Assembly: GCA_965214845.1 (NCBI GenBank)
Contig: CBDCCO010000007.1
Span: 1,137,030 to 1,201,029, forward strand
Source of the DNA: Vicinamibacterales bacterium
GTDB taxonomy: Bacteria > Acidobacteriota > Vicinamibacteria > Vicinamibacterales > UBA8438
Direction: 5' to 3'
Length of the DNA stretch: 64,000 nt
The notes under the pieces were generated by a model, which was given only the letters and a program-made list of their open reading frames with translations, did not search any database and was not told where the DNA came from. Every line of letters begins with the position of its first letter. Position 1 is the stretch's first letter. A program made the translations under genes and the position numbers. Positions 4,800 to 58,121 of this stretch are shown here, piece by piece.

Positions 4800-6178
4800 T
4801 GCGTTCTCCTTCGGCCGCCCTCTCGCCCCTGCTCCTGGCCGCGGTGCTGTTCGCCGAGGGCTACTCGTCGCTCTCGATCGAGATCCTGGCCCTGCGCCGG
4901 ATGGTCCCGTGGGTCGGCTCGGCGGTGCCGGTCACCTCGCTTCTGCTCAGCGTGTACCTGGCCGCGCTGGCCGCGGGCTACCAGACCGGCGGGCGCCTGG
5001 CCGCCGCGGGCGGCGACCTGCGCGGCGCCCTCGGCCGGCGCCTGGTTCTGGCCGCCGCGCTCGCGGCCTTCTGGCTCTCGGACCTGGGCGTCACGCTGGT
5101 CTTCTCGCTGCCGCTGCCGCCGGTCGCGGCGATAGCGCTCTACTCGGTCGCCGGGATTGCGCCGCCGGGGTACCTGCTGGCGCAGTGCATCCTGCTGGCC
5201 CACGCGTGCGCGCGGCCGGCGGATCCGTCCGTGCGCGCCGGGCGCGTCTTCGCGGTCTCGACCGCGGGCAACGTCGCCGGCTCGCTCCTGACGGCCTTCG
5301 TGGTGCTCTCGCACCTGGGCACGGCGGCCGCCGCGCTGCTCATCGTCGCGGCGCTGGTCGCCGCCGCGCTGGCCGTCAGCCCGCGCTCGTTCGGCCCGGT
5401 CGCGATCGCGCTGTGCCTGATCGGTCCGGGCTTCAGCCTCTGGTACGAGGCGACGCGGCTGGTCGCCAGCACGGCGTACGCCGACTACAGCGTGCTGCCG
5501 ATAGACGCCGAGCCGGCGGGCAGGCTGCTCTTGCTCAACCGGAGCCCGGCGTCCCGGGACGACCCGGACGGCACGGGCTGGGAGTACCTCGAGTGGATCG
5601 AGGACCAGCTGTGCGCGGAGCGGCCCGGGCGGGTGCTCGTCCTCGGCGCCGCCGGGCGCACGCTCGGCCGCGGGCGCGACTGCTTTCCGCCGCCGGTCTT
5701 CGTCGACATCGACCCGGCCGTGGGTCGTGTCGCCGGGGAGCTGCTCTTCGGTCCCGCCCCCGGCCCGCTCGTCGTGGCCGACGCGCGCGCGTTCCTGCGC
5801 CGCGGCGACCCGGCCTGGGACGTTGTCGTGGTCGATGCCTACTCGCACGAGCTCACGTTCCCGTCGCACCTGGGGACGGCGGAGTTCTTCTCGGCGGTCC
5901 GCGGCAGCCTGGCGGTAGGCGGCATCGCGTACCTCAACGTGCTGACGCCGCCGGACTCGGCCCGTTTCCTCTCGCGCCTTGACCGGACGGTCCGCAGCGT
6001 CTTCGCCGAGTGCCGCACCTGGTCGGTGCTCGCGCACGGCCGGCGCGAGCCCCTTGTCCGGGCGGTCGGCCGGCCGGACAACCTCGTCTACCGCTGCCTG
6101 CGTTCGCCGCACGACGGCGACGCGGCGGTGTACTCCGACGCGCTGCCGCGCATCGACCTCGATCGCGGCCTGCGCTGA
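4778..6178 (+). CDS. membrane-anchored spermidine synthase-like (class I SAM-fold) protein
   Basis: 466 aa. The N-terminal ~230 aa form multiple hydrophobic helices. The C-terminus reads VLVLGAAGRTLGRG...FVDIDPAV...VVVVDAYSHELTFPSHLGTAEFF...GGIAYLNV, which resembles an aminopropyltransferase fold. Confidence 0.6.
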   Translation: MSGEVSSLRSPSAALSPLLLAAVLFAEGYSSLSIEILALRRMVPWVGSAVPVTSLLLSVYLAALAAGYQTGGRLAAAGGDLRGALGRRLVLAAALAAFWLSDLGVTLVFSLPLPPVAAIALYSVAGIAPPGYLLAQCILLAHACARPADPSVRAGRVFAVSTAGNVAGSLLTAFVVLSHLGTAAAALLIVAALVAAALAVSPRSFGPVAIALCLIGPGFSLWYEATRLVASTAYADYSVLPIDAEPAGRLLLLNRSPASRDDPDGTGWEYLEWIEDQLCAERPGRVLVLGAAGRTLGRGRDCFPPPVFVDIDPAVGRVAGELLFGPAPGPLVVADARAFLRRGDPAWDVVVVDAYSHELTFPSHLGTAEFFSAVRGSLAVGGIAYLNVLTPPDSARFLSRLDRTVRSVFAECRTWSVLAHGRREPLVRAVGRPDNLVYRCLRSPHDGDAAVYSDALPRIDLDRGLR

Positions 6179-7033: not shown

Positions 7034-7717
7034 TCACCGGTGGCGCCGGCCGGCGCCCTGCAGCACCTCGCGCCGGAGGCGCCGGTCCATCCGCTGGCGC
7101 GCGCGGCGTGCGCGGACGGCGGCCCACGCCGCTGCCTCGAGCTCTCCCGGCGTCAGCTCGATTCCGTCGGCGAGTGCGCCGAGCATCGTCTCGAGCCTTG
7201 CGAGGGCGATCTCGTCGGGCCGGCCCCGGCCGGCCTGCTCCGTGAGCTCCCAGAAGTCGACTGCGGGCAGCGTCCGGGCCGCCTCGATGATTGCCGCCAG
7301 CGTTTCCGGCGTCTCGACCGGCACCCAGGCGTCCTGGTTCAGCCAGCCGAACCAGCGTTCGCACGTGGCCCCGATCTCGGGGGGTCTCGCGTGCATCCAG
7401 ACCTGGTCGATCTCCTGCTCGGCCCGGCAGACGCCGGCGATGGTGGCCGGGTCGATCCCGAGCGCCGCGGCGGCGGTCTCGGCCGGCCTGTCCCCGGCGG
7501 GCAACTCGGCGATGCCGAGTCCCAGCGCCGAGGGGCAGACCAGCAGTGCTTCGCGGCACCCGGGAGTTCTCGCCGGCCGGCGGGCGACGAACTCCATCGG
7601 CTTGCTGCCGGGCCTCGCGGCCTTCTCGTGCGCGAAGGCGGCGAAGTGCTTCTCCTCGAGCGCCTTCAGGATCCGGCTCTGCCGCCGGTCCTCGTTCTGT
7701 CCGGTGGTCTTCGTCAT
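7034..7717 (-). CDS. hypothetical protein
   Basis: 227-aa ORF: MTKTTGQNEDRRQSRILKALEEKHFAAFAHEKAARPGSKPMEF...WFGWLNQDAWVPVETPETLAAIIEAARTLPAVDFWELTEQ. The composition looks coding. No family recognised. Confidence 0.55.
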   Translation of the reverse strand: MTKTTGQNEDRRQSRILKALEEKHFAAFAHEKAARPGSKPMEFVARRPARTPGCREALLVCPSALGLGIAELPAGDRPAETAAAALGIDPATIAGVCRAEQEIDQVWMHARPPEIGATCERWFGWLNQDAWVPVETPETLAAIIEAARTLPAVDFWELTEQAGRGRPDEIALARLETMLGALADGIELTPGELEAAAWAAVRARRARQRMDRRLRREVLQGAGRRHR

Positions 7718-12218: not shown

Positions 12219-12250
12219 GTTTCAATCCTCGCCACGCGAGCGTACCGCGC
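12219..12250 (-). CRISPR. solitary type I-C-like CRISPR repeat unit (partial) in the 5' UTR of the polyvalent gene
   Basis: On the minus strand: GCGCGGTACGCTCGCGTGGCGAGGATTGAAAC, then GAGGACTGCAAG, then the ATG at 12206. The last 14 nt, GCGAGGATTGAAAC, are shared with R2 at 55087-55118. It has a short CTCGC/GCGAG hairpin. The IS1634 end lies 33 nt upstream. Confidence 0.45.
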
Positions 12251-25536: not shown

Positions 25537-26418
25537 ATGAGGCAGGGACATCGAGGGTTGATCGCAGCGTCGTGCTGCGTCTGGCTGTTGGCTGTGGCAG
25601 GGCCCGCCGGTGGCCAGGACGCGTACGTGACCGACTTGCGCAGCCTCCTGGCGGACCGGGGCGACGCTGATGTGCAGTCCATCCTCGGCGACACGTACGC
25701 CATCGGCCGGGGCGTGCGGCAGGATTACGTGGAAGCCGTCCGCTGGTACCGTCTTTCGGCCGGCCAGGGCCACGCCCGCGGGCAGTACAACCTCGGCGTC
25801 ATGTACGACTACGGCTGGGGCGTGGAGCAGGACGACGGGGAGACCGTCCGCTGGTACCGCCTCGCCGCCGACCAGGGCCTCGCCAGCGCGCAGGTCAACC
25901 TCGGCTTCATGTACCACCTTGGCCGGGGCGTGGAGCAGGATTATGCGGAAGCCGCCCGCTGGTTCCGCCTTGCGGCGGACCAGGGCCTCGCCAGCGCGCA
26001 GTACAACCTCGGCCTGGCGTACGCCGACGGCCAGGGTGTGGAGCAGGACGACGGGGAAGCCGCCCGCTGGTACCGCCTCGCGGCCGACCAGGGCCACGCC
26101 GACGCGCAGGTCAACCTCGGCGTCATGTACTACTTCGGCCGGGGCGTGGCGCCGGACGACGCGGAATCCGCCCGCTGGTACCGTCTCGCGGCGGACCAGG
26201 GCCTCGCCAGCGCGCAGGTCAACCTCAGCCTCGCGTACGCCAACGGCGAGGGCGTGCCGCTGGATTACGTCGCTGCGCACCTGTGGGCGAGTCTCGCCGC
26301 AGTGCAGGGCCAGGAAACTGGGCGCGAGCTCCGCGACTATCTCGCCCGGAACATGAGCGCCGAACAGATCGCCGCCGCCCGGCGAGCTGCACGCGAGTGG
26401 CGTCCCGCGCACCGGTAG
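25537..26418 (+). CDS. secreted Sel1-like repeat (SLR/TPR) protein
   Basis: Signal-like MRQGHRGLIAASCCVWLLAVAGPAGG, followed by ~7 repeats of the type GVxQDxxEAxRWYRLAADQGxAxAQxNLGxMY. Confidence 0.85.
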   Translation: MRQGHRGLIAASCCVWLLAVAGPAGGQDAYVTDLRSLLADRGDADVQSILGDTYAIGRGVRQDYVEAVRWYRLSAGQGHARGQYNLGVMYDYGWGVEQDDGETVRWYRLAADQGLASAQVNLGFMYHLGRGVEQDYAEAARWFRLAADQGLASAQYNLGLAYADGQGVEQDDGEAARWYRLAADQGHADAQVNLGVMYYFGRGVAPDDAESARWYRLAADQGLASAQVNLSLAYANGEGVPLDYVAAHLWASLAAVQGQETGRELRDYLARNMSAEQIAAARRAAREWRPAHR

Positions 26419-37967: not shown

Positions 37968-39281
37968 GTGAGCGCTGCTGCCGCCGGCCAGCCGCCGGAC
38001 GGGTCCGGCGAGGAGCTGGACAGCTTCCCGGACTCGGACGCGGGTGCGGGCCTGCCCGCGCCCGGTCCTCCGCTGCCCACGGACGTGGCGCGCCAGGTCC
38101 GTGAAGCGCACAACCGCGCCGGCGGTCCGGCGCCCGGGGATCCCGGCGATCCGGAACCGGTTGTTCCGGCGCCGGCGCCGGCGCGCCCCCGGCCCCGACA
38201 TGCCCCGCCCGCCGGGCCGGAGGCCGGCGCGCCCCCGCCGGGTTCGGCCGCCGAGCCGGCCGGCGCGCGGCCGAGCGCCGTGTTCGGGTCGCCCACGTCG
38301 GTCGACGCGCCGCCGGAGCTGGCCGACCTCGACCGCCCGCCGGAGCCCGCCGCCCGCGCCGCGGCCGCCGAGCCTCCGTCGGGTCGCGCTACCCTGGCGC
38401 GCCGTGCGCTCGCGTCCCTGGTGGATGGTGCGGCGGCGCTCGCCGTCGTCGCCTTCGTGGCGCTCGTCGCCGAGGTGGTCCGGATCCGTACGGCCGGCGG
38501 CGTGACGGTCCCGCCTGTGGCGCTGGCGGCCGCCTGGGTGGCCGTCGGCTGGGGGGCCGTCCTCATCGGCGACGGCCTCTTCGGCGCGACCCTGGGCCGG
38601 CGGGCCTGCGGTGTGCGCCTGGTGCGCCCGGACGGCGCGCCCGCCGGCTGGTGGCGTCCGCTCGTCCGTCGGGCCGCCGTCGACCTGCGCGCGGCGCTGG
38701 TCCTCGGGCTCGCCTTCGCCCTCACGCTGCGCAGGCAGGGCGCTTCCGCCGGCCCGCTGCTGCCGCCGTCCGCCGCCGATGCCGGCGTGTTCGCGGCGTT
38801 CGCCGCCATCCTGGCCGCGATGCTCCTGCTGCTCGGGCGCGCCGGGCCGCGCCGCGCCGCGCTGGCCGATGCCGTCAGCGGCACGGTCTCTGCCGTCGCG
38901 CCCCCGCCGGAGGCGGCGCGTCCGGCGGTTTCCGTCTCGCGGGTGATCCGCGCCGCGCCGCGGCGGCGCGTCCGGGAGCGCCGGCGCGCGCCCGTCGTCC
39001 CGGACTACCTGCGCCTGCCGGGCGACCCGGACGATGAGGCGGACGAGCGCCCGCCGCGTCCGCGCGTGCTGCGGGCCCGGACCGGCCGGGCGGAGGACCC
39101 GCGGCTGGATCACCCCGAGGGCTTCGACGCCCCGCATGGCCTGCCGGGCCGTGCCGCCGCGTACCTTGTCCGGCGTTTGGGGTCCCGGTCTCGGTGGCAG
39201 GGGGGCTTCGATGCCCCGCGTGGCCTGCCGGGCCGCGTTGCCGCGTACCTTGTCCGGTGCTTGGGGTCCCGGTCCCGGTAG
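37968..39281 (+). CDS. RDD-family membrane protein with Pro-rich N-terminus and repeat-containing C-terminus
   Basis: ATLARRALASLVDGAAALAVV...GDGLFGATLGRRACGVRLVRPDG is an RDD-domain pattern with 3-4 TM segments. The C-terminal 56 aa are encoded by the 84-bp tandem repeat. Confidence 0.6.
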   Translation: MSAAAAGQPPDGSGEELDSFPDSDAGAGLPAPGPPLPTDVARQVREAHNRAGGPAPGDPGDPEPVVPAPAPARPRPRHAPPAGPEAGAPPPGSAAEPAGARPSAVFGSPTSVDAPPELADLDRPPEPAARAAAAEPPSGRATLARRALASLVDGAAALAVVAFVALVAEVVRIRTAGGVTVPPVALAAAWVAVGWGAVLIGDGLFGATLGRRACGVRLVRPDGAPAGWWRPLVRRAAVDLRAALVLGLAFALTLRRQGASAGPLLPPSAADAGVFAAFAAILAAMLLLLGRAGPRRAALADAVSGTVSAVAPPPEAARPAVSVSRVIRAAPRRRVRERRRAPVVPDYLRLPGDPDDEADERPPRPRVLRARTGRAEDPRLDHPEGFDAPHGLPGRAAAYLVRRLGSRSRWQGGFDAPRGLPGRVAAYLVRCLGSRSR

Positions 39282-39286
39282 CAGGT
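39119..39286. repeat. 2 x 84-bp tandem direct repeat
   Basis: GGGCTTCGA[C/T]GCCCCGC[A/G]TGGCCTGCCGGGCCG..GTACCTTGTCCGG..TTGGGGTCCCGGTC, with unit starts at 39119 and 39203 and ~85% identity. It is in frame, giving GFDAPxGLPGRxAAYLVRxLGSRSR twice. Confidence 0.8.
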
Positions 39287-47967: not shown

Positions 47968-48167
47968 GCGGCAGAACGCTGGCGGCGCCCCTGCCGCCGA
48001 GGCCGCACCCGAGCGGGGGTACCGCTACCTCGCTGATGCCGTGGCGCAGGCACGCCGGGCCGATGGCGCGGCAGGACGCTGGCGGCGCCCCTGCCGCCGA
48101 GGCCGTAGCCGAGCGGGGGCACCGCCCCCTCGCTGATGCCGCGGCGCAGGCACGCGGGGCCGATGGC
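47968..48167. repeat. 2 x 100-bp tandem duplication inside macrodomain gene B
   Basis: The units at 47968-48067 and 48068-48167 both begin GCGGCAG[A/G]ACGCTGGCGGCGCCCCTGCCGCCGAGGCCG.. 100 is not a multiple of 3, so the duplication shifts the frame. Confidence 0.85.
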
Positions 48168-48480: not shown

Positions 48481-48856
48481 AGGGCGCGCCCGGCCCGAGA
48501 TCGCTCCCATCCATGCACCTGGGACACGACGGGTCCCGGACTGCATAATTATTTTCAGACTGCATAAGCATGAAAGTGGTTACCCCAAAAATTTGGGGTT
48601 ACCCTTTTCGCCTGCAAGCCGATGGGAATCAGCAGAACTCGTTCTTCAGCAACAAATTGCGGACAGAAAAACGACTTTCGCCCCTGAGGGCCAAAAAGCC
48701 GTCCAATTCTGCTTGCCGGGCCCGGCAAGCAGAAAACCGCTCTATTCACTAACCGGCTGAACGACCGAGGCGGGCCCCCAGGGTGGGCCCCCTCCGAGGG
48801 CCCCCGGCCGGCCGGGATCCGGCCAAGACTCCGCCAGACGGCCGGCGGCCGATCCC
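48481..48856. repeat. right copy of the ~370-bp inverted repeat (AT-rich core 48521-48748)
   Basis: Reverse complement of 8518-8881. It lies between macrodomain gene B (reading leftward) and macrodomain fragment C (reading rightward). Confidence 0.9.
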
Positions 48857-48929
48857 TGCGGCTGGCCGACCGGCCATGAGGCGCCGGCACGCAGGCGGAG
48901 CACCGGCGAGAAAGGAACGGAGGAGCGCG

Positions 48930-49052
48930 ATGGAGAACGTCCGGCTGAGCGACGGTGACATTCTCGAGGCGGGGGCGCCGTGCGTCCCGGTGAACCTGGC
49001 CGGCGCCATGGGACGCGGCCTCGCGGGGGCGGCGCGCTGCGTCTCGCCGGGC
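48930..49052 (+). pseudogene. macrodomain gene fragment C (N-terminal ~40 codons only)
   Basis: GGAGGAG RBS and then the ATG at 48930. MENVRLSDGDILEAGAPCVPVNLAGAMGRGLAGAARCVSPGL matches the GDLL..ALVNxVNxxGVMGKGIA N-terminal macrodomain block. The similarity ends where the helicase gene 3' end begins. Confidence 0.5.
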
Positions 49053-51159
49053 CTAGCGCGCGGCGGCGGCGTAGCCCGGCTCGGTCCGCCCCGCGCCGTG
49101 GGGCCCCAGTGGCCGCTCCCGCGCCGTGGCCCCGGCCGGCGCCGGTGCGGCGTGCGGCTCTGGCGGCTCGGTGCGCTCGATCAGCCGGTCGGGAATGGAC
49201 TCGATGAAGGGCGAGCGCTCCACGCGCTTGAGCCTGGCGCCGTGGGCGATCCGCAAGGGCGCCGTCAGGTGCAGCTCCCTGCGCGCCCGGGTCATGCCGA
49301 CGTAGGCTAGGCGGCGCTCCTCCTCGATGGCCGCCGCCGGGGTCGCCGGCCTCCGACACCGTGCGGTGGTGCGGCAGCCGCTCGGCGTCGAAGCCGGCGA
49401 GGATCACCGTGTCGAACTCGAGCCCCTTGGCCGCGTGTAGTGTGGACAGGGTGACCGGCTCGCGGCCCGCGCCGGCCTCGCGCGCGCCGTGCGCGGCCTC
49501 GCGGAGCTGCCTGCAGCGTTCGACGAACCCGGCGCTCACCTGGCGCGGGTCCTCGCGCCCGGCGCCGGCCGCCCCGCGCCCCTCGCGCGCGAACTCGCGC
49601 GCGTCGCGCACCAGCTCGTCGATGTTCTCGATCCGCTCGATCTGGCGCTTGTCGTCGCCCTTGCGCAGCGCGTCGCGGTAGCCGGTCAGCCTCTGCGCCC
49701 GGACGATGACGTCGGCCGGACCCAGGCCCTGCCAGCCCTCCAGCGTCCGGATTTTCTCGAGCCGGCGGGCCGCCGCCGCCGCGTCCCTCGGGCTCAGCGA
49801 GCCGTCGCCGAGGGCCGCCGCGACCCGCTCGCGGCAGGGCGCCGAGGATGGACCGGCACGGTCAATGCGGTCGAGCCCGGCTGCGCTGACCCGCTCGCCG
49901 GGCGGCATCGCCAGGAAGCGCCGCGCAGCGGCGCCGGCCCCGCCGCCCCCGGCCGCGATCTCGACGCAGGCCAGCATGTCCCGGATCTCCGGCCGCTCGT
50001 AGAACGATTCGCCGCCGGCGATCCGGTACGGGACCGACGCGTTCCTGAACGCCGACTCCATCGCGCACGCCTGCGCGTTCGTCCGGTAGAGCACCGCGAC
50101 CGGCCCGCCGCCGGCCGTCTGCCGCCGGCGGGCGGCCTCGGCGGCGTAGTGGGCCTCGCCGGCCGGGTCCGCCGCCAGGTGCAGGCGCACTGGGCCGCCG
50201 GCGTCGCGGGTCGTCTCGATGGCGCGGTCGATGCGCGCCGTGTTCGGCTCGATGACCGCCCGGGCCGCCTCGAGGATGTTCCCCGTCGAGCGGTACGTCA
50301 GGTTCAGGTCGATGCGCCGCGCGCCCTCGAAGTCGTCCTCGAAGCGCATGATGTTCTCGATGCTCGCCCCGCGCCACTCGTAGATCGCCTGGTCGGGGTC
50401 GCCGACCGCGAACACGTTGCCGCGCTCGGCGGTCAGCTGCCGGATGAGCACGTACTGCGGCAGGTTCGTGTCCTGGTACTCGTCGACCAGCAGGTGCGGG
50501 TGCTCCCGCTCGCCGGCCGCGGCCACGTCCCTGTGCTCGTGCAGCAGCCGGATGGTCCAGAGCATCATGTCGTCGAAGTCGAGCGTGTTGCGCTCGGCGA
50601 GCTTGTCCTGGTACCGTCCGGCTATCGCCGCCGTCTCGGCGGCCTGCCCGCCCGCCCCCCACTGTTTCGGGTCGTCGGGGCTCTCGAGCCTGTTCTTGAT
50701 CCCGCTGATGCGGTGCAGCACGGCGTTCGCGCCGAGCGGCCCGCCGCGGCCGCGGACCTCGCGCGCGGCCTCGCGCAGCAGCGCCTGCCGCTCGCCCGCC
50801 TGCGCCACGGCGAAGTCCGGCGGGATGCCGACGCGCGCGCCGTCCCGGCGCAGGATGCGGCCGCACAGGCGGTGGAAGGTCGAGACCCAGACGCCGTTGC
50901 CGTGGAGCGGCCCGAGCATCTCGCGCACGCGCCCGGCCATCTCGCCGGCTGCCTTGCGCGTGAAGGTGATGGCCGCGATGCGGGCGGGGTCGATGCCGCG
51001 GCTGCGCACCAGGTGGGCGATCCGCGCACAGATCACCCGGGTCTTGCCCGAGCCGGGCCCGGCCAGCACCAGGGTCGGCCCGTCGGGGGCCGAGGCGGCC
51101 TCGCGCTGGCGGTCGTTGAGCCCCTCGAGAGGCGGCCTTTCCCAGGCGCAGCCGTCCAT
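49053..51159 (-). pseudogene. UvrD/Rep/PcrA-family helicase with an apparent 1-nt frameshift near 49,325-49,345
   Basis: LNDRQREAASAPDGPTLVLAGPGSGKTRV (Walker A), LLVDEYQDTN, VGDPDQAIYEWRGA, TLHAAKGLEFD. The C-terminal motif, (A)AAIEEERRLAYVGMTRARRELHLT...SPFI, is in another frame (ORF 49053..49295). The total length of 2107 nt is not a multiple of 3. This could also be a sequencing error. Confidence 0.7.
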
Positions 51160-51275
51160 TGCCTGCGGTGCGGGCTAGCGCTCGCGGCCACGGTCGCGGT
51201 TGCGCGAGTCGCGAGGCTGCTGCCTGCCGGCCGGGTCCGGCCCCGGATTCGGCTCCGGTGCGTCGGGCGGGCTGC
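51115..51275. repeat. ~160-bp direct repeat, copy 1 (helicase start plus upstream gene tail)
   Basis: GTTGAGCCCCTCGAG.GGCGGCC..TCCCAGGCG..GCCGTCCAT.GCCTGCGGTGCGGGCTAGCG... aligns with 53265-53420 at roughly 80% identity with one 12-nt indel. Confidence 0.8.
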
Positions 51276-52287
51276 CGGGCCGGAGCGAGATGGCGTCGGG
51301 CGCTCTGGCGGGCTCCTCTGCCTGGTCGCCGATCTCGACCATCTTGCCGAGCCCGGCGCTGCTGCGCGCCTCGTTCAGGCGTCGCTCCGGCGTCCCGTCG
51401 TCGCTGTCGAACGCCACGCCGGTCCACCTCTTCTTGCTGAGTGCGTCGAGGCTTGCTTCCAGTCCTCGCCGACGCAGCGTGCTGTTCGCGGCGATGTAGG
51501 CGCCGATACCGGATTGAGTCAGTGCGGCGTGTGCCTGTTCCCGCTGGTAGGTCTCGGTCCGCGTTCCGCCCGCGGGGCTCGTCGTCTCGATCGCGATGCC
51601 GATGTCGGTCGTCCGGATTCGCACGTGCCTGTAGCGGTGGTTCCACGCAGCGTCGGCTGCCGCGTCTCCCATGCCGTCCAGGTATTTCTCGTAATGTGGC
51701 GGCACCCCTCGCAGCGTTGTCTTCGCGTCCTCGACCATTTCGTCGTTCATGGTCAAGAGGTTGTGACAGATGGTTCGTCTCTTGGCCTCGTCGAGGCTGT
51801 TGACTGCGATCTCGAGCGCACGGGGGTCTTCTTCGGCGGCCACTGCCATGTCGAAGGCGTCGCGTGTCACGCCGCGGTCGGTACGGTAGAACTTTCCCCG
51901 CAGGATCTGCGCGTTGTCGAGGACCACCTCGGAACGTCCTTCGACGTCGGTTCGGCTTTCGAGCCCTGGCAGCTGTGGCGGGATTGCCGCAACGTCGAGC
52001 TTGCCGTTCTTGAGTACGACGATCAGCCGCTCGCGGGTGCTGCCCTCATGTTTTCCCCCCGTGGCTGCTGCCAGGTCCAGTGGTCCGCCCTTGCCAGCGT
52101 CGGCGACGTTGTCGCGGTCCGGCAGAAGGATGTCGATATCGGTGCTTTCGCGGTGGTGCCACCGTGAAGCGAGCACGGATCCGCCGCCCAGCATCGTGCG
52201 GCTCTCGCCGCCTGACGCCGTGGCGATTCGGTCGATGGCCTTGCGGTGCTGCTTCCACAGCGTGCGCGCTGGTTCCGGCAGGGTCAT
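51175..52287 (-). CDS. AbiEii/DUF1814-like nucleotidyltransferase (putative toxin), copy 2
   Basis: The ATG at 52287 overlaps the upstream stop (ATGA). MTLPEPARTLWKQHRKAIDRIATASGGESRTMLGGGSVLASRWHHRESTDIDILLP...NAQILRGKFYRTDRGVTRDAFDMAVAAEEDP... The C-terminal ~25 aa (PEPNPGPDPAGRQQPRDSRNRDRGRER) are homologous to the tail of 53325..53756. Confidence 0.65.
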   Translation of the reverse strand: MTLPEPARTLWKQHRKAIDRIATASGGESRTMLGGGSVLASRWHHRESTDIDILLPDRDNVADAGKGGPLDLAAATGGKHEGSTRERLIVVLKNGKLDVAAIPPQLPGLESRTDVEGRSEVVLDNAQILRGKFYRTDRGVTRDAFDMAVAAEEDPRALEIAVNSLDEAKRRTICHNLLTMNDEMVEDAKTTLRGVPPHYEKYLDGMGDAAADAAWNHRYRHVRIRTTDIGIAIETTSPAGGTRTETYQREQAHAALTQSGIGAYIAANSTLRRRGLEASLDALSKKRWTGVAFDSDDGTPERRLNEARSSAGLGKMVEIGDQAEEPARAPDAISLRPGSPPDAPEPNPGPDPAGRQQPRDSRNRDRGRER

Positions 52288-52748
52288 TGGTGTGGCTTCG
52301 CGTGCCGGTTGACGTAGTCGGCGAGCTCCGCGCTGTAGTGGTTGTTCTCGTGCATCGCCTGCGCCAGTTGCCGCCAGGTGTACGCCCCGTCGAGGTAGCC
52401 GAATGCGACCGTGTCGGTCGTCCCTTCGACGATCAGCACACGTACGATCGCCCGCTGGCGTGCGGTTCGCACCGGCGTGCGCATCGCCTCGTAGAACTCT
52501 CGTGCTGTCGGGCTCTGCGGCCACCCGCAGCACGCCCGGTTCAGCAGCCCCGCGATTGCTGCGCATTCGGGTCCGCGCCCGCTTGTCGGGAATCGCGGGT
52601 CGGGGTCGGCGTACGCGTCGCTGAACGCGTTGGGCGGCAGCACCGCCACCGGCTGCGTCAGTGCTCCCTCTTCGCGGCCCCGGCGCTTGAGCTCCGTTCG
52701 TATCCAGGCGTTTCGGTCGGTGGGCCCGGCGGCGTGACCACTTGGCAT
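52284..52748 (-). CDS. hypothetical small protein, CCGWP-motif family, copy 2
   Basis: I chose the ATG at 52748 (MPSGHAAGPTDRNAWIRTELKRRG...NRACCGWPQSPTAREFYEAMR...GAYTWRQLAQAMHEN). The ORF-track extension to 52961 is a read-through of the CRISPR-like repeats, visible as periodic RPAHA..MNP. Confidence 0.6.
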   Translation of the reverse strand: MPSGHAAGPTDRNAWIRTELKRRGREEGALTQPVAVLPPNAFSDAYADPDPRFPTSGRGPECAAIAGLLNRACCGWPQSPTAREFYEAMRTPVRTARQRAIVRVLIVEGTTDTVAFGYLDGAYTWRQLAQAMHENNHYSAELADYVNRHAKPHQ

Positions 52749-52780
52749 TTTCCGAGGATAGCAGTGTCTCACGAACGCGG

Positions 52781-52990
52781 GGTTCATCCCGGCCTGCGCG
52801 CGCCGGGCGGATCCGTACCGGTCGTGTCGCTCCGATCTGCGCTTCGTCCCCGCGTGCGCGGGGCGGATCTGTCGAGCCTGGAGCGATGACTGCGGGGCTG
52901 GGTTCATCGTCGCGTGCGCGGGGCGCACGAGTGGAACCTGACAGGTATTGACTGGGGACACGGCTCATTCCCGCCCGGGCGGGGTGGTCT
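52781..52990 (-). CRISPR. degenerate orphan type I-E-like CRISPR mini-array (4 repeats, 3 spacers)
   Basis: Plus-strand repeats: 52781 GGTTCATCCCGGCCTGCGCGCGCCGGGCGGATC (33 nt); 52841 GCTTCGTCCCCGCGTGCGCGGGGCGGATC; 52901 GGTTCATCGTCGCGTGCGCGGGGCGCACG; 52962 GGCTCATTCCCGCCCGGGCGGGGTGGTCT. The period is 60/60/61 nt and the spacers are 27/31/32 nt. The reverse complement of repeat 2, GATCCGCCCCGCGCACGCGGGGACGAAGC, resembles the I-E consensus. Confidence 0.6.
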
Positions 52991-53264
52991 CGATCCGGTG
53001 CCGTCCGTGCCGCGGGTGATGAACTTGGCGTGCACCCGGCCGCTCCTCTCCGAAGCGGAACAGTCGCGCGATTGCCCGCTCAATGGCGACTCAGTGGGCG
53101 AGACCTTGCGCTTCGGCCGTCTCGGTGTGCGTGTTCGCCTACCGCGCGATCTGGTTCAGTTTATTGCCGATGCGGGCGACCTGCCGGCTGCCGGGTGCAC
53201 TCGCGCTCGGTGCCGACCGCCTGCGCGGCACCGGCCCACTGCGTGGTTCGCTTGATGGGCGGTA

Positions 53265-53420
53265 GTTGAGCCCCTCGAGCGGCGGCCGCTCCCAGGCGTG
53301 GCCGTCCATCGCCTGCGGTGCGGGCTAGCGCCCGTGGCCGTGGTCATGGCCCCGGTCGCGGTTGCGCGGGTCGGGAGGGAGTTGCCTGCCGGCCCAATCC
53401 GGGCCGTTGTTCGGCTTTGG
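53265..53420. repeat. ~160-bp direct repeat, copy 2 (contains a 15-codon remnant of the helicase start at 53265-53309, minus strand)
   Basis: The remnant MDGHAWERPPLEGLN compares with the intact helicase N-terminus MDGCAWERPPLEGLN at 51159. The repeat also covers the 3' tail of 53325..53756. Confidence 0.8.
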
Positions 53421-53756
53421 ATCATCAGGCTGGCCGCCCTGCCGGAGGGGGACCTCGCGCGCGTTCCGCAGGGTCTCGGACGTCCCGGCCGCCGCCCGGG
53501 CCGCGCCCGAGCCGGCGGGTTCGCCGGGTCCGCCCGGCGCGTCCTGGCCGCCGCGGCCGAGTCGCCGGCCCAATGCGCCGAGGCCGGCGCCGATGGCGTC
53601 GTTGAGCGGGTTGCGGGCCTGGGCGGCGTTGCCCGTCATGATCCCGGTCGTCACCTGGGACTGCGTGTCCTCGATGGCGCTGGCCGTGCGCGACACCGCC
53701 GGGGCGGCCTTCGAGATCGCGCTGCCCGCTGCCGCGCGCAGCTCCTTGTTCGCCAT
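53325..53756 (-). CDS. hypothetical protein
   Basis: 143 aa: MANKELRAAAGSAISKAAPAVSRTASAIEDTQSQVTTGIMTGNAAQARNPLNDAIGAGLGALGRRLG.., with the tail ..PKPNNGPDWAGRQLPPDPRNRDRGHDHGHGR. Confidence 0.45.
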   Translation of the reverse strand: MANKELRAAAGSAISKAAPAVSRTASAIEDTQSQVTTGIMTGNAAQARNPLNDAIGAGLGALGRRLGRGGQDAPGGPGEPAGSGAARAAAGTSETLRNAREVPLRQGGQPDDPKPNNGPDWAGRQLPPDPRNRDRGHDHGHGR

Positions 53757-55042: not shown

Positions 55043-55118
55043 ACCGCTCCCGGCACGGGAGCAGGGATTGAAACTGAAACGTAGAGGCTGCTCCCCAGGT
55101 GGGAGCGAGGATTGAAAC
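55043..55118 (+). CRISPR. tandem pair of type I-C-like CRISPR repeats with a 12-nt pseudo-spacer (solitary-repeat / mini-array-like)
   Basis: R1 55043-55074 ACCGCTCCCGGCACGGGAGCAGGGATTGAAAC; gap TGAAACGTAGAG; R2 55087-55118 GCTGCTCCCCAGGTGGGAGCGAGGATTGAAAC; the ATG follows at 55119. Against the I-C repeat as I recall it (GTCGCGCCCCGCACGGGCGCGTGGATTGAAAC), R1 matches 25/32 and R2 23/32, with a compensatory G-C to T-A change in the stem. Confidence 0.7.
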
Positions 55119-57412: not shown

Positions 57413-58121
57413 CCTGCTCGTGCGCTTGCCGGCGCTCGCCGCGCTGGCCGCGGCCGCCGGCGCCGGGTGCGCGCACGCCGCGGGGCCCGCCGGGCCGGGC
57501 GCCCCGCCGCCGGAAGCCGCTCCCGCGCCGGAGGCGGGCACCACGCGGCTGGCGCGGCTGGTCCATCCCGCCGCGCCGCCCGGCCGGCGCCTCGCGGGCC
57601 CGGCCGGTGGCGGCGAGCCCCTGCCGCGGACCTGGCGGGGGCTGCGGCTCGAGGCCAGGAGCCGCTGCCCGGACTACGACGCGTCGGCCTACGGGCCGCC
57701 CGGGCCACCGCCGCGGCTGCGGGCCGAGGGCGGCTGGCGCGAGCTCGCCGGCTGCGCGCTGTTTGCCGGCCCGGGCGCCGAGGCGGTCGATGCCGCCCGC
57801 CTCGTCCCGGCCGCCGCAGCCCACGATGCGGGCCTGTGCCGCGCGCCGGCCGGCGTCCGCGCGGCCTTCGCCGCTGATCCGGACAACGTGTTGCACCTGC
57901 CGCGCAGCGTCGCGGCGCTGCGCCGCTACCTCGCCGACACCGGCGCGCCCGTGTGGATGCCGGCGCGCAACCGCTGCTGGTACGTCCGCGCGCAGCTGCG
58001 GGTCCGCCGCCGCTACGACCTGTCGGTCACCCCCGCGGAGGCGGCGGCCTTCGACGCCGTGCTGGCCGGGTGCGCCGGCGCCCCGGCGGCGCCGGCCTGC
58101 GGGCCGCCGGGGGCCTTCTGA
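57387..58121 (+). CDS. lipoprotein with catalytically degenerate DUF1524/HNH-like domain
   Basis: Lipobox ..AAAGAGC. ..AVDAARLVPAAAAHDAG...RAAFAADPDNVL...VWMPARNRCWYVRAQLRVRRRYDLSVTPAEAAAFDAVLAGC aligns to the secreted DUF1524 pattern DIDHxVPL..A..SG...FANDxxN...W.P....C.Y.....VK..Y.L.vt..E..AL...L..C, but the D-H pair is replaced by A-R. Confidence 0.5.
   Translation: MSRPLVRRSLLVRLPALAALAAAAGAGCAHAAGPAGPGAPPPEAAPAPEAGTTRLARLVHPAAPPGRRLAGPAGGGEPLPRTWRGLRLEARSRCPDYDASAYGPPGPPPRLRAEGGWRELAGCALFAGPGAEAVDAARLVPAAAAHDAGLCRAPAGVRAAFAADPDNVLHLPRSVAALRRYLADTGAPVWMPARNRCWYVRAQLRVRRRYDLSVTPAEAAAFDAVLAGCAGAPAAPACGPPGAF

Follow-up and report, generated by a model that had tools for sequence, protein, structure and literature searches.

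A degenerate type I-E-like CRISPR mini-array beside an AbiEii-type gene cassette in a conjugative-element-like region of a Vicinamibacterales bacterium

Type I-E CRISPR arrays, as known from Escherichia coli K-12, are built from a 29-nt repeat (GAGTTCCCCGCGCCAGCGGGGATAAACCG) and 32-nt spacers. Here we describe a mini-array of four type I-E-like repeat units in a 64-kb stretch of contig CBDCCO010000007.1 (assembly GCA_965214845.1, positions 1,137,030 to 1,201,029) from a Vicinamibacterales bacterium; the whole stretch is called the window below, and coordinates refer to it unless a locus is named. The units lie on the minus strand at 52780–52989, and two overlapping genes follow them in the same direction: gene A, of unassigned family, and gene B, which encodes an AbiEii-type nucleotidyltransferase. 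The window is a conjugative-element-like region of a soil acidobacterium, with genes for ParB-type proteins, a strawberry-notch-type helicase, a topoisomerase, a lytic transglycosylase, a NADAR/SLOG protein and transposases. We consider it probable that the mini-array is a relic fragment of a type I-E array, leaderless and decaying, that was carried in together with the AbiEii-type cassette and a mobC-like gene fragment.

Several described systems resemble this locus in part. With type I-E arrays of the E. coli K-12 type it shares the repeat layout, the 61-nt period and unique 31–32-nt spacers, but it lacks a leader, the 64 kb contain no cas genes, its repeats are 62–79% alike, one of them carries a 4-nt loop insertion and another has lost its hairpin. 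The gene pair recalls the type IV toxin–antitoxin system AbiE (AbiEi plus AbiEii) in that gene B passes the AbiEii Pfam threshold, carries nucleotidyltransferase motifs and forms a bicistronic unit with a 4-nt overlap, whereas the upstream position of the AbiEi-type winged-helix protein is taken by gene A, which has no family or fold match. Toxin–antitoxin cassettes also reside inside chromosomal integron cassette arrays. There, as here, a pair lies within a repeat-separated array and could oppose large deletions, but the repeats in the window are CRISPR repeats rather than attC sites and no integrase accompanies them, and a stabilising role would be an analogy.

Repeats without cas genes have been described in several other settings. 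An RNA anti-CRISPR (Racr) is a solitary repeat unit that is not linked to other full or partial repeats; Racrs occur on mobile elements, in many cases immediately after a promoter and in the vicinity of acr genes, and those against type I-E are known from phages and plasmids (PMC10651486). In the window, too, a mobile element that lacks cas genes holds repeat mimics, with the hairpin kept in some units, but there are four units at array spacing with canonical spacers between them and no upstream promoter-like site; no acr genes were identified in the window. Type I-E Cracr arrays with two or three spacers are found on phages and plasmids, and the one characterised in detail has 21- and 24-nt spacers (bioRxiv 10.1101/2024.10.29.618823). 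Like these arrays and the CreA/CreR systems, including CreTA and CrePA (PMC9458426; bioRxiv 10.1101/2024.01.05.574328; PMC10120712), the mini-array consists of degenerate repeats around a few spacers beside a toxin-type gene. It differs from them in that its spacers are not shortened, no seed match to the toxin promoter is present and the array is not in a cas locus, while the toxin is part of a protein pair with a partner gene of its own. Finally, orphan arrays are common on plasmids (PMC9071438). The window shares with such orphan or degenerate arrays on plasmids and other mobile elements a cas-less array on a mobile element, here beside a mobC-like fragment and an addiction-type module, but it is far more decayed than arrays presumed to be functional and no target of its spacers was found.

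Repeat units, spacers and repeat class

The plus strand of 52781–52990 reads four times as GGTTCATC-stem-loop-stem-GGATC. On the minus strand, each unit follows the layout of 5 nt, CCCCGC, a 4-nt loop, GCGGGG and an 8-nt handle of the ATGAACC type, with unit lengths of 33, 29, 29 and 29 nt for U1, U2, U3 and U4, respectively. Read in the minus-strand direction, the array is composed as follows, with scores from the covariance model R1 and folds of the single units:

52961–52989, minus strand: repeat unit U4, GACCACCCCGCCCGGGCGGGAATGAGCCG; R1 28.6 bits, E = 7.9e-5; hairpin weakened to 5 bp, fold of −9.3 kcal/mol at the canonical position
52929–52960, minus strand: spacer S1, 32 nt; 53% G+C in a local region of ~69% G+C
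52900–52928, minus strand: repeat unit U3, GTGCGCCCCGCGCACGCGACGATGAACCC; R1 23.5 bits, E = 1.5e-3
52869–52899, minus strand: spacer S2, 31 nt
52840–52868, minus strand: repeat unit U2, ATCCGCCCCGCGCACGCGGGGACGAAGCG; R1 29.7 bits, E = 4.3e-5; fold of −15.1 kcal/mol
52813–52839, minus strand: spacer S3, 27 nt
52780–52812, minus strand: repeat unit U1, ATCCGCCCGGCGCGCGCAGGCCGGGATGAACCC, 33 nt; R1 20.3 bits, E = 9.2e-3; fold of −14.7 kcal/mol

R1 was built from 24 I-E-like units, all from other loci, and was run, unfiltered, against both strands of the entire window. U2, U4, U3 and U1 were returned as matches 1, 2, 3 and 5, all on the minus strand, and their alignments placed stem, loop and handle in register across the units. 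The only further match with E < 0.01 was a site of 90% G+C at 57701–57729. The initial annotation had read the region as four units with a 60/60/61-nt period and spacers of 27, 31 and 32 nt, and both sequence inspection and R1 bear this out: the 3′ ends of U4 to U1 are spaced by 61, 60 and 60 nt, and the spacers of 32, 31 and 27 nt are unrelated to one another. An inverted partial unit that had been placed at 53009–53024 is present as sequence, but it was not picked up by R1 and has no statistical support.

The units have drifted apart in different ways. U2, the best of them, has an intact CCCCGC/GCGGGG stem and a mutated 3′ handle. U1 carries four extra loop bases, giving an 8-nt loop, and retains an intact handle (ATGAACCC); its CCCGGC/GCCGGG stem is one compensatory pair flip (C–G to G–C) away from the canonical stem. 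U3, with two broken stem pairs, no longer forms the canonical hairpin, and its RNA adopts an alternative 5′ hairpin instead; the full canonical hairpin is thus found only in U2 and U1. Pairwise identities among the four units are 18–23 of 29 positions (62–79%), unlike the near-identical repeats of a type I-E array. They match the E. coli repeat at 18–20 of 29 positions and a high-G+C consensus, composed by hand around the repeat core of metagenome arrays, at 21–24 of 29. Allowing up to three mismatches, a 23-nt consensus was found at two sites in comparison with 0.01 expected from shuffles. The array was not reported by Tandem Repeats Finder, and Rfam returned no CRISPR-DR family, either for the window at gathering thresholds or for 52600–53200 at permissive settings, where two spurious weak matches were all that appeared. 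The predicted fold of the whole region 52740–53060 was no more stable than those of shuffles (z = +1.5), and a larger structured RNA at this position was therefore rejected.

A search of metagenome contigs with the repeat core CCCCGCRCMCGCGGGGATGRACC returned at least 120 loci, mostly long arrays with a 61-nt period. In one of them (L090), genes for Cas3, Cse1, Cse2, Cas7 (CT1975), Cas5, Cas6e and Cas1 lie directly upstream of the core-repeat array, and another (L019) carries Cas5, Cas6e and Cas1 genes. The Cas1 of the latter is 99% identical to NCBI proteins named type I-E CRISPR-associated endonuclease Cas1 (Cas1e). Using tblastn, I-E cas genes were found at 30 or more of these at least 120 loci, L090, L039 and L023 among them, and at every such locus repeat and cas genes were on the same strand. 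Because the core forms arrays that are co-oriented with I-E cas operons, sequence comparison shows the window units to belong to the type I-E repeat family and to be oriented co-directionally with the downstream gene pair; the transcribed strand would be the minus strand. The I-E-likeness proposed in the initial annotation is thereby upheld, as a model trained on other loci matches all four units and the core adjoins I-E cas operons, and the direction it gave for the array, towards the gene pair, is correct on the grounds of the constant co-orientation of core repeats and cas genes. The window itself holds no recognisable Cas protein: no Cas domain was found with Pfam in the 37 window open reading frames (ORFs) scanned, and tblastn with seven I-E Cas proteins gave no match in the 64 kb.

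An origin of the periodicity in a protein-coding repeat was considered and rejected. Gene A can be extended upstream to an ORF of 225 aa that runs across the repeats, but this extension is not conserved, and the complete homologues P0001 and P0002 start at the methionine at 52748, downstream of the repeats. The extension of ORF 52284..52961 is, as had been supposed, a mere translation of the repeats.

The composite block and its direct repeats

The array lies in a block of ~2 kb (51291–53257) that is placed between two copies of the junction between a 143-aa gene and a UvrD-like gene. From left to right, the features of this region are:

51108–51290, no strand assigned: left direct repeat; tail of the 143-aa gene (P0012-type allele) with the intergenic DNA and the first part of the intact UvrD-like gene
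51175–52287, minus strand: gene B, AbiEii-type nucleotidyltransferase, 370 aa
51292–52766, minus strand: conserved mobile cassette of 1.47 kb as delimited by blastn; promoter-like element, gene A and gene B
52284–52748, minus strand: gene A, 154 aa, all-alpha, family unassigned; carries a conserved C(C/A)GW motif and shares 4 nt with gene B
52755–52763, minus strand: TGCTATCCT, extended −10-like element at the 5′ edge of the cassette
52990–53257, minus strand: upstream piece of 268 bp between the right direct repeat and the array; mobC-like gene fragment
53258–53452, no strand assigned: right direct repeat; 3′ end of the resident 143-aa gene and a 5′ fragment of a UvrD-like gene

A ~2-kb insertion between direct repeats had already been noted, and the insertion holds; the repeats, however, measure ~185–195 bp rather than ~160 bp and are 75–88% identical to each other. 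The whole block, comprising the mobC-like fragment, the array and the cassette, recurs with 99.2% identity in two contigs from other samples (L138 and L139), whose flanking repeats differ from those of the window by 7–23%. Across the array, L138 and the window differ at one of 210 nt, and the direct repeats of L138 (1275–1465 and 3426–3616) are both of the left type and 95% identical to each other. Judged by these identities, a block that is 99.2% conserved between flanks that are 7–23% apart shows both where the block ends and that its three parts (mobC-like piece, array and cassette) are transferred or exchanged together.

A similar arrangement is seen around the cassette of L003, which sits in an unrelated context and is flanked by 182-nt direct repeats (5614–5795 and 7503–7684) of 77% identity. 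Imperfect direct repeats of 180–195 nt and 75–95% identity are therefore present in two unrelated targets, and they are far longer than normal target-site duplications. Such long imperfect repeats fit, we infer, a single crossover of a circular DNA bearing a diverged target copy. By this route the block may have entered the region, leaving the long imperfect repeats behind. The array itself probably arrived as part of this ~2-kb composite rather than arising on the conjugative element.

The array and the 268 bp upstream of it are present in L138 and L139, and blastn found no counterpart of them in other cassette loci. A promoter scan of the 268 bp revealed no leader-like promoter. The mobC-like fragment, ...VARIGNKLNQIAR at 53142–53186, is a weak Pfam MobC match (E = 0.01) below the cut-off, and what precedes the array may thus be left over from a mobilisable plasmid. 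This tail belongs to ORF 53142–53309 (minus strand), in which the first 15–17 codons of a UvrD-like gene are fused to ...VARIGNKLNQIAR; MobC is a relaxosome protein.

Further observations concern the neighbourhood of the block. A protein search with the adjacent 143-aa protein identified a paralogue, P0011, of 82% identity, and the source genome may carry a second, related copy of the element or module. The UvrD/Rep-type helicase gene (48742–51159, minus strand) appears frameshifted near its 3′ end, where it acquires a low-complexity Arg/Ala/Pro tail. In another frame of the same strand, an 80-aa ORF (49053–49295; 95% third-position G+C; starting MTRARRELHLT) resembles the true UvrD C-terminus, and the gene is either a pseudogene or subject to an assembly error. 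Tandem duplications at 47968–48167 (2 × 100 nt, 92%) and 39119–39285 (2 × 84 nt, 89%) are located within or close to G+C-rich parts of the element; the 6 × 108-nt repeat at 25650–26297 is coding and corresponds to Sel1 repeats.

The gene pair and its cassettes at other loci

That the array lies directly upstream of a toxin–antitoxin-like pair and is co-oriented with it, as first reported, was confirmed: the array edge (U1) is 14 nt outside the 5′ end of the cassette at 52766. The cassette is 90–92% identical (blastn) to copies at three other loci (L001, L006 and L008), and the match breaks off abruptly at 52766 and 51292. At other loci its 3′ edge coincides with the gene B stop codon. In the window, the native part of gene B ends at 51292, with the last ~60 nt missing relative to other loci, and the frame continues into the left direct repeat, from which its last 39 codons are derived. 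The match of gene B to Pfam AbiEii (PF08843; 25.6 bits at a cut-off of 22.5) covers residues 22–63 of the N-terminal region only, and the LGGG[ST] and DID nucleotidyltransferase motifs are invariant among five gene B homologues; no sequence match was found in the PDB. Gene A, presumed to be the antitoxin or partner of gene B, had no match in Pfam, NCBIfam or PADLOC, and its all-alpha AlphaFold model (predicted local distance difference test, pLDDT, of 83) had no fold match in the PDB. Nine clusters of gene A homologues were present in the protein collection, and seven of seven genome matches came from Vicinamibacterales (phylum Acidobacteriota), a distribution by which the cassette family appears restricted to this order. 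No cassette relatives were found in the metagenome contigs of the Joint Genome Institute (JGI) or in IMG/VR, and exact-protein look-ups returned no record of gene A, gene B or P0011.

The element at the 5′ edge of the cassette is conserved as GTGCTAT(C/G/T)(C/G)T in L001, L003, L006, L008 and L011, and TGCTATCCT is the putative promoter of the cassette itself. A sigma-70 consensus scan of 51000–53500 identified no promoter-like site, the TGCTATCCT element included.

Repeat units of type I-E were also found around other copies of the cassette, at a distance of no more than ~750 nt in L003, L008 and L011, in a variety of arrangements:

L010: a cassette of 42% identity begins within a repeat (GGCTTCCC, directly followed by TTGCTAGG...) of an array whose four repeats are identical and have a 61-nt spacing; the repeats after the cassette are degenerate
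L008: two divergent cassettes, the second with a 35%-identical gene A, enclose four degenerate units
L011: a solitary intact repeat lies 79 nt after the cassette
L011: a five-unit array lies ~560 nt after a 31%-identical gene B paralogue, with a weaker opposite-strand unit ~300 nt after the paralogue
L003: three units lie ~720 nt upstream of the cassette

Using a position-weight matrix at a threshold of ≥14 bits and a conservative permutation within loci, we found a unit within 1 kb of 8 out of 20 cassette copies, compared with 4.2 expected (P = 0.017). Nearly all nearby units (27/29) were co-oriented with the cassette. No cas gene was found within 6–10 kb of any cassette, and no cassette was found among the generic I-E array loci listed, at least 120 in number. 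Degenerate short I-E fragments were also seen at L003 (410–1074 and 5029–5180, on both strands), L004 (941–1151) and L011 (992–1512), with no cas gene within 6–10 kb. Orphan I-E fragments seem unusually common in mobile-element regions of Vicinamibacterales, and their commonness in the order would inflate tests of local association. The association between cassette and array is real enough to account for an array fragment at this place, but too weak to prove a functional link.

We also searched for targets of the spacers. A comparison with phages, plasmids and the island, as had been suggested, yielded none: S1 to S3 had no match in the window, in INPHARED phages, in PLSDB plasmids or in 0.8 Mb of fetched loci, and a 20-mer of S1 had no match in IMG/VR. 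The low G+C content of S1 is nevertheless as expected of a real spacer of foreign origin. Regulation of the cassette by a CreA-like mechanism was rejected as well. No spacer had a seed match (≥10 of 12 nt) to the promoter region of the cassette, where the longest shared words were 8–9 nt, and the only seed match of this quality in 51000–53500 was inside gene B (51568–51579). Similarly, the spacers of L003, L010 and L011 showed no CreA-like complementarity to their own loci.

Readings of the mini-array and their consequences

The element carries a second kind of CRISPR-like unit. Three type I-C-like units, each a stem-loop followed by GGATTGAAAC, are located at 55046–55074 (plus strand), 55090–55118 (plus strand) and 12219–12245 (minus strand). 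The exact GGATTGAAAC 10-mer occurs three times in the window, and with up to one mismatch there are four sites as opposed to 0.5 expected. The first two units are 44 nt apart and end at the ATG (55119) of a ParB/N6-adenine-methyltransferase fusion gene, whereas the third ends ~20 nt before the ATG (12206) of a 1088-aa NADAR/SLOG/DUF4326 gene. The exact pattern was absent from IMG/VR. These units are possible candidates for solitary-repeat RNA anti-CRISPRs, or may instead represent a common element of the 5′ untranslated region or ribosome-binding site (GAGGA); as RNA anti-CRISPR candidates, they are better than the mini-array. Within the 64-kb window, the initial annotation was thus right to describe an island with both I-C-like and I-E-like repeats and no cas gene. 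Of the two explanations it had offered, a captured array remnant fits the evidence and is the better one. Repeat-based interference with host CRISPR systems is not supported for the mini-array, given its canonical spacer length, divergent handles, one lost hairpin, and lack of an upstream promoter-like site and of a target.

If the array and the cassette were functionally coupled, the cassette would be an array-resident module, co-transcribed with the precursor CRISPR RNA (pre-crRNA) and set free when Cas6e cuts at the last repeat; such a module would stabilise the array against repeat–repeat deletion through post-segregational killing, or spread between arrays through repeat recombination, and the window would show a working or recently working arrangement. 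Co-oriented adjacency does recur across paralogues of 31–42% identity (in the window, L010, L008 and L011), the last repeat in the window ends 14 nt from the cassette edge, and the L010 repeats are identical upstream of the cassette and decayed downstream, as expected if a cassette had long resided at the end of an active array. Most cassette copies, however, have no array within 1–10 kb, the units are upstream at some loci and downstream at others, the cassette has a conserved promoter-like element of its own, cas genes are missing within 6–10 kb of every copy, the permutation support is modest (P = 0.017) and none of the at least 120 generic I-E array loci contains a cassette. We therefore regard such a coupling as unlikely. 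The idea that the cassette is an array-resident toxin–antitoxin module, living in I-E arrays like an oversized spacer, co-oriented and possibly co-transcribed, which protects arrays from repeat-mediated deletion or moves by repeat recombination, and that the mini-array is a piece it took along, seems to us slightly less doubtful, although still improbable.

An anti-CRISPR RNA device, in which the mimics soak up Cas6e and Cascade subunits of the I-E system of a recipient in the manner of a Racr, or the spacers redirect Cascade to repress cas promoters in the manner of a Cracr array, is a poorer candidate still. It would suit a mobile element without cas genes, on which two or three hairpins are preserved, including the one with a compensatory change in U1, and on which the I-C-like stem-loop plus GGATTGAAAC occurs three times beside genes of an anti-defence type (ParB-methyltransferase; NADAR/SLOG); type I-E Racrs and I-E Cracr arrays with two or three spacers are moreover documented (PMC10651486; bioRxiv 10.1101/2024.10.29.618823). 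Yet Racr candidates are solitary by definition and there are four units here, the spacers of 27–32 nt are of normal I-E size and not of the 21 and 24 nt of the characterised I-E Cracr array, no promoter-like site lies upstream, the U3 hairpin is lost, no spacer target was found, and the array belongs to the inserted block with its mobC fragment and not to the element's own anti-defence genes. Much the same evidence makes it very unlikely that the array is still an active orphan that uses I-E Cas proteins of the host against competing mobile elements: the spacers are unique and of normal size, one of them has the low G+C content typical of foreign DNA, and orphan arrays are common on plasmids (PMC9071438), but the repeats differ in both handles, a leader is missing, one hairpin is lost and no protospacer was detected in the phage, plasmid and viral collections or the fetched loci. 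That the units are not derived from CRISPR at all, but are chance GC-rich palindromes, a repetitive extragenic palindromic (REP)-like element or a protein-coding repeat, is hardly credible. With ~75% G+C overall, palindromes are common in the window, and both Tandem Repeats Finder and Rfam are silent. Such an origin is already contradicted by R1 E-values down to 4e-5 with a 29/32 geometry on a single strand, by the 0.01 consensus matches expected from shuffles and by the start of the complete homologues P0001 and P0002 downstream of the repeats.

The reading of the mini-array as a relic, carried in with the cassette and the mobC-like fragment, accounts best for these observations, and several points weigh against it. 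The compensatory flip that keeps the U1 stem, together with the perfect stem of U2, may point to selection acting on the hairpins instead of neutral decay, and the three I-C-like mimics on the same element make a deliberate role as anti-CRISPR RNA more probable a priori. When the window is compared with L138, the array is as conserved as the coding cassette, although this carries little weight at an overall divergence of 0.8%. The association with arrays is not universal, since no unit occurs within 1 kb at 9 of the 15 non-redundant loci, and the P-value from permutation is modest. Furthermore, the units of L003 lie outside the repeat-bounded insert, and co-transfer is thus not the sole route to adjacency.

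Under the relic reading, the array piece would be a footprint of the former home of the cassette, either embedded in an array or borne on a plasmid, because cassettes recur inside or beside co-oriented I-E arrays. We infer that the array no longer confers immunity. If the cassette is transcribed from its own TGCTATCCT element, as seems probable, it would not need the array. At most, a resident Cas6e might bind or cut the two intact hairpins, U2 and U1, provided that read-through RNA exists.

The mini-array itself is ordinary, a decaying orphan CRISPR fragment on a mobile element, and it matters for what it leads to. Around cassette insertions in two unrelated contexts, the direct repeats are long and imperfect, which hints at an unusual insertion route. 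The lead is an uncharacterised two-gene cassette, apparently restricted to one lineage, that recurs co-oriented inside or beside type I-E arrays. If the link between cassette and array proved functional, it would add a protein toxin–antitoxin layer to the ways in which CRISPR loci are guarded or exploited.

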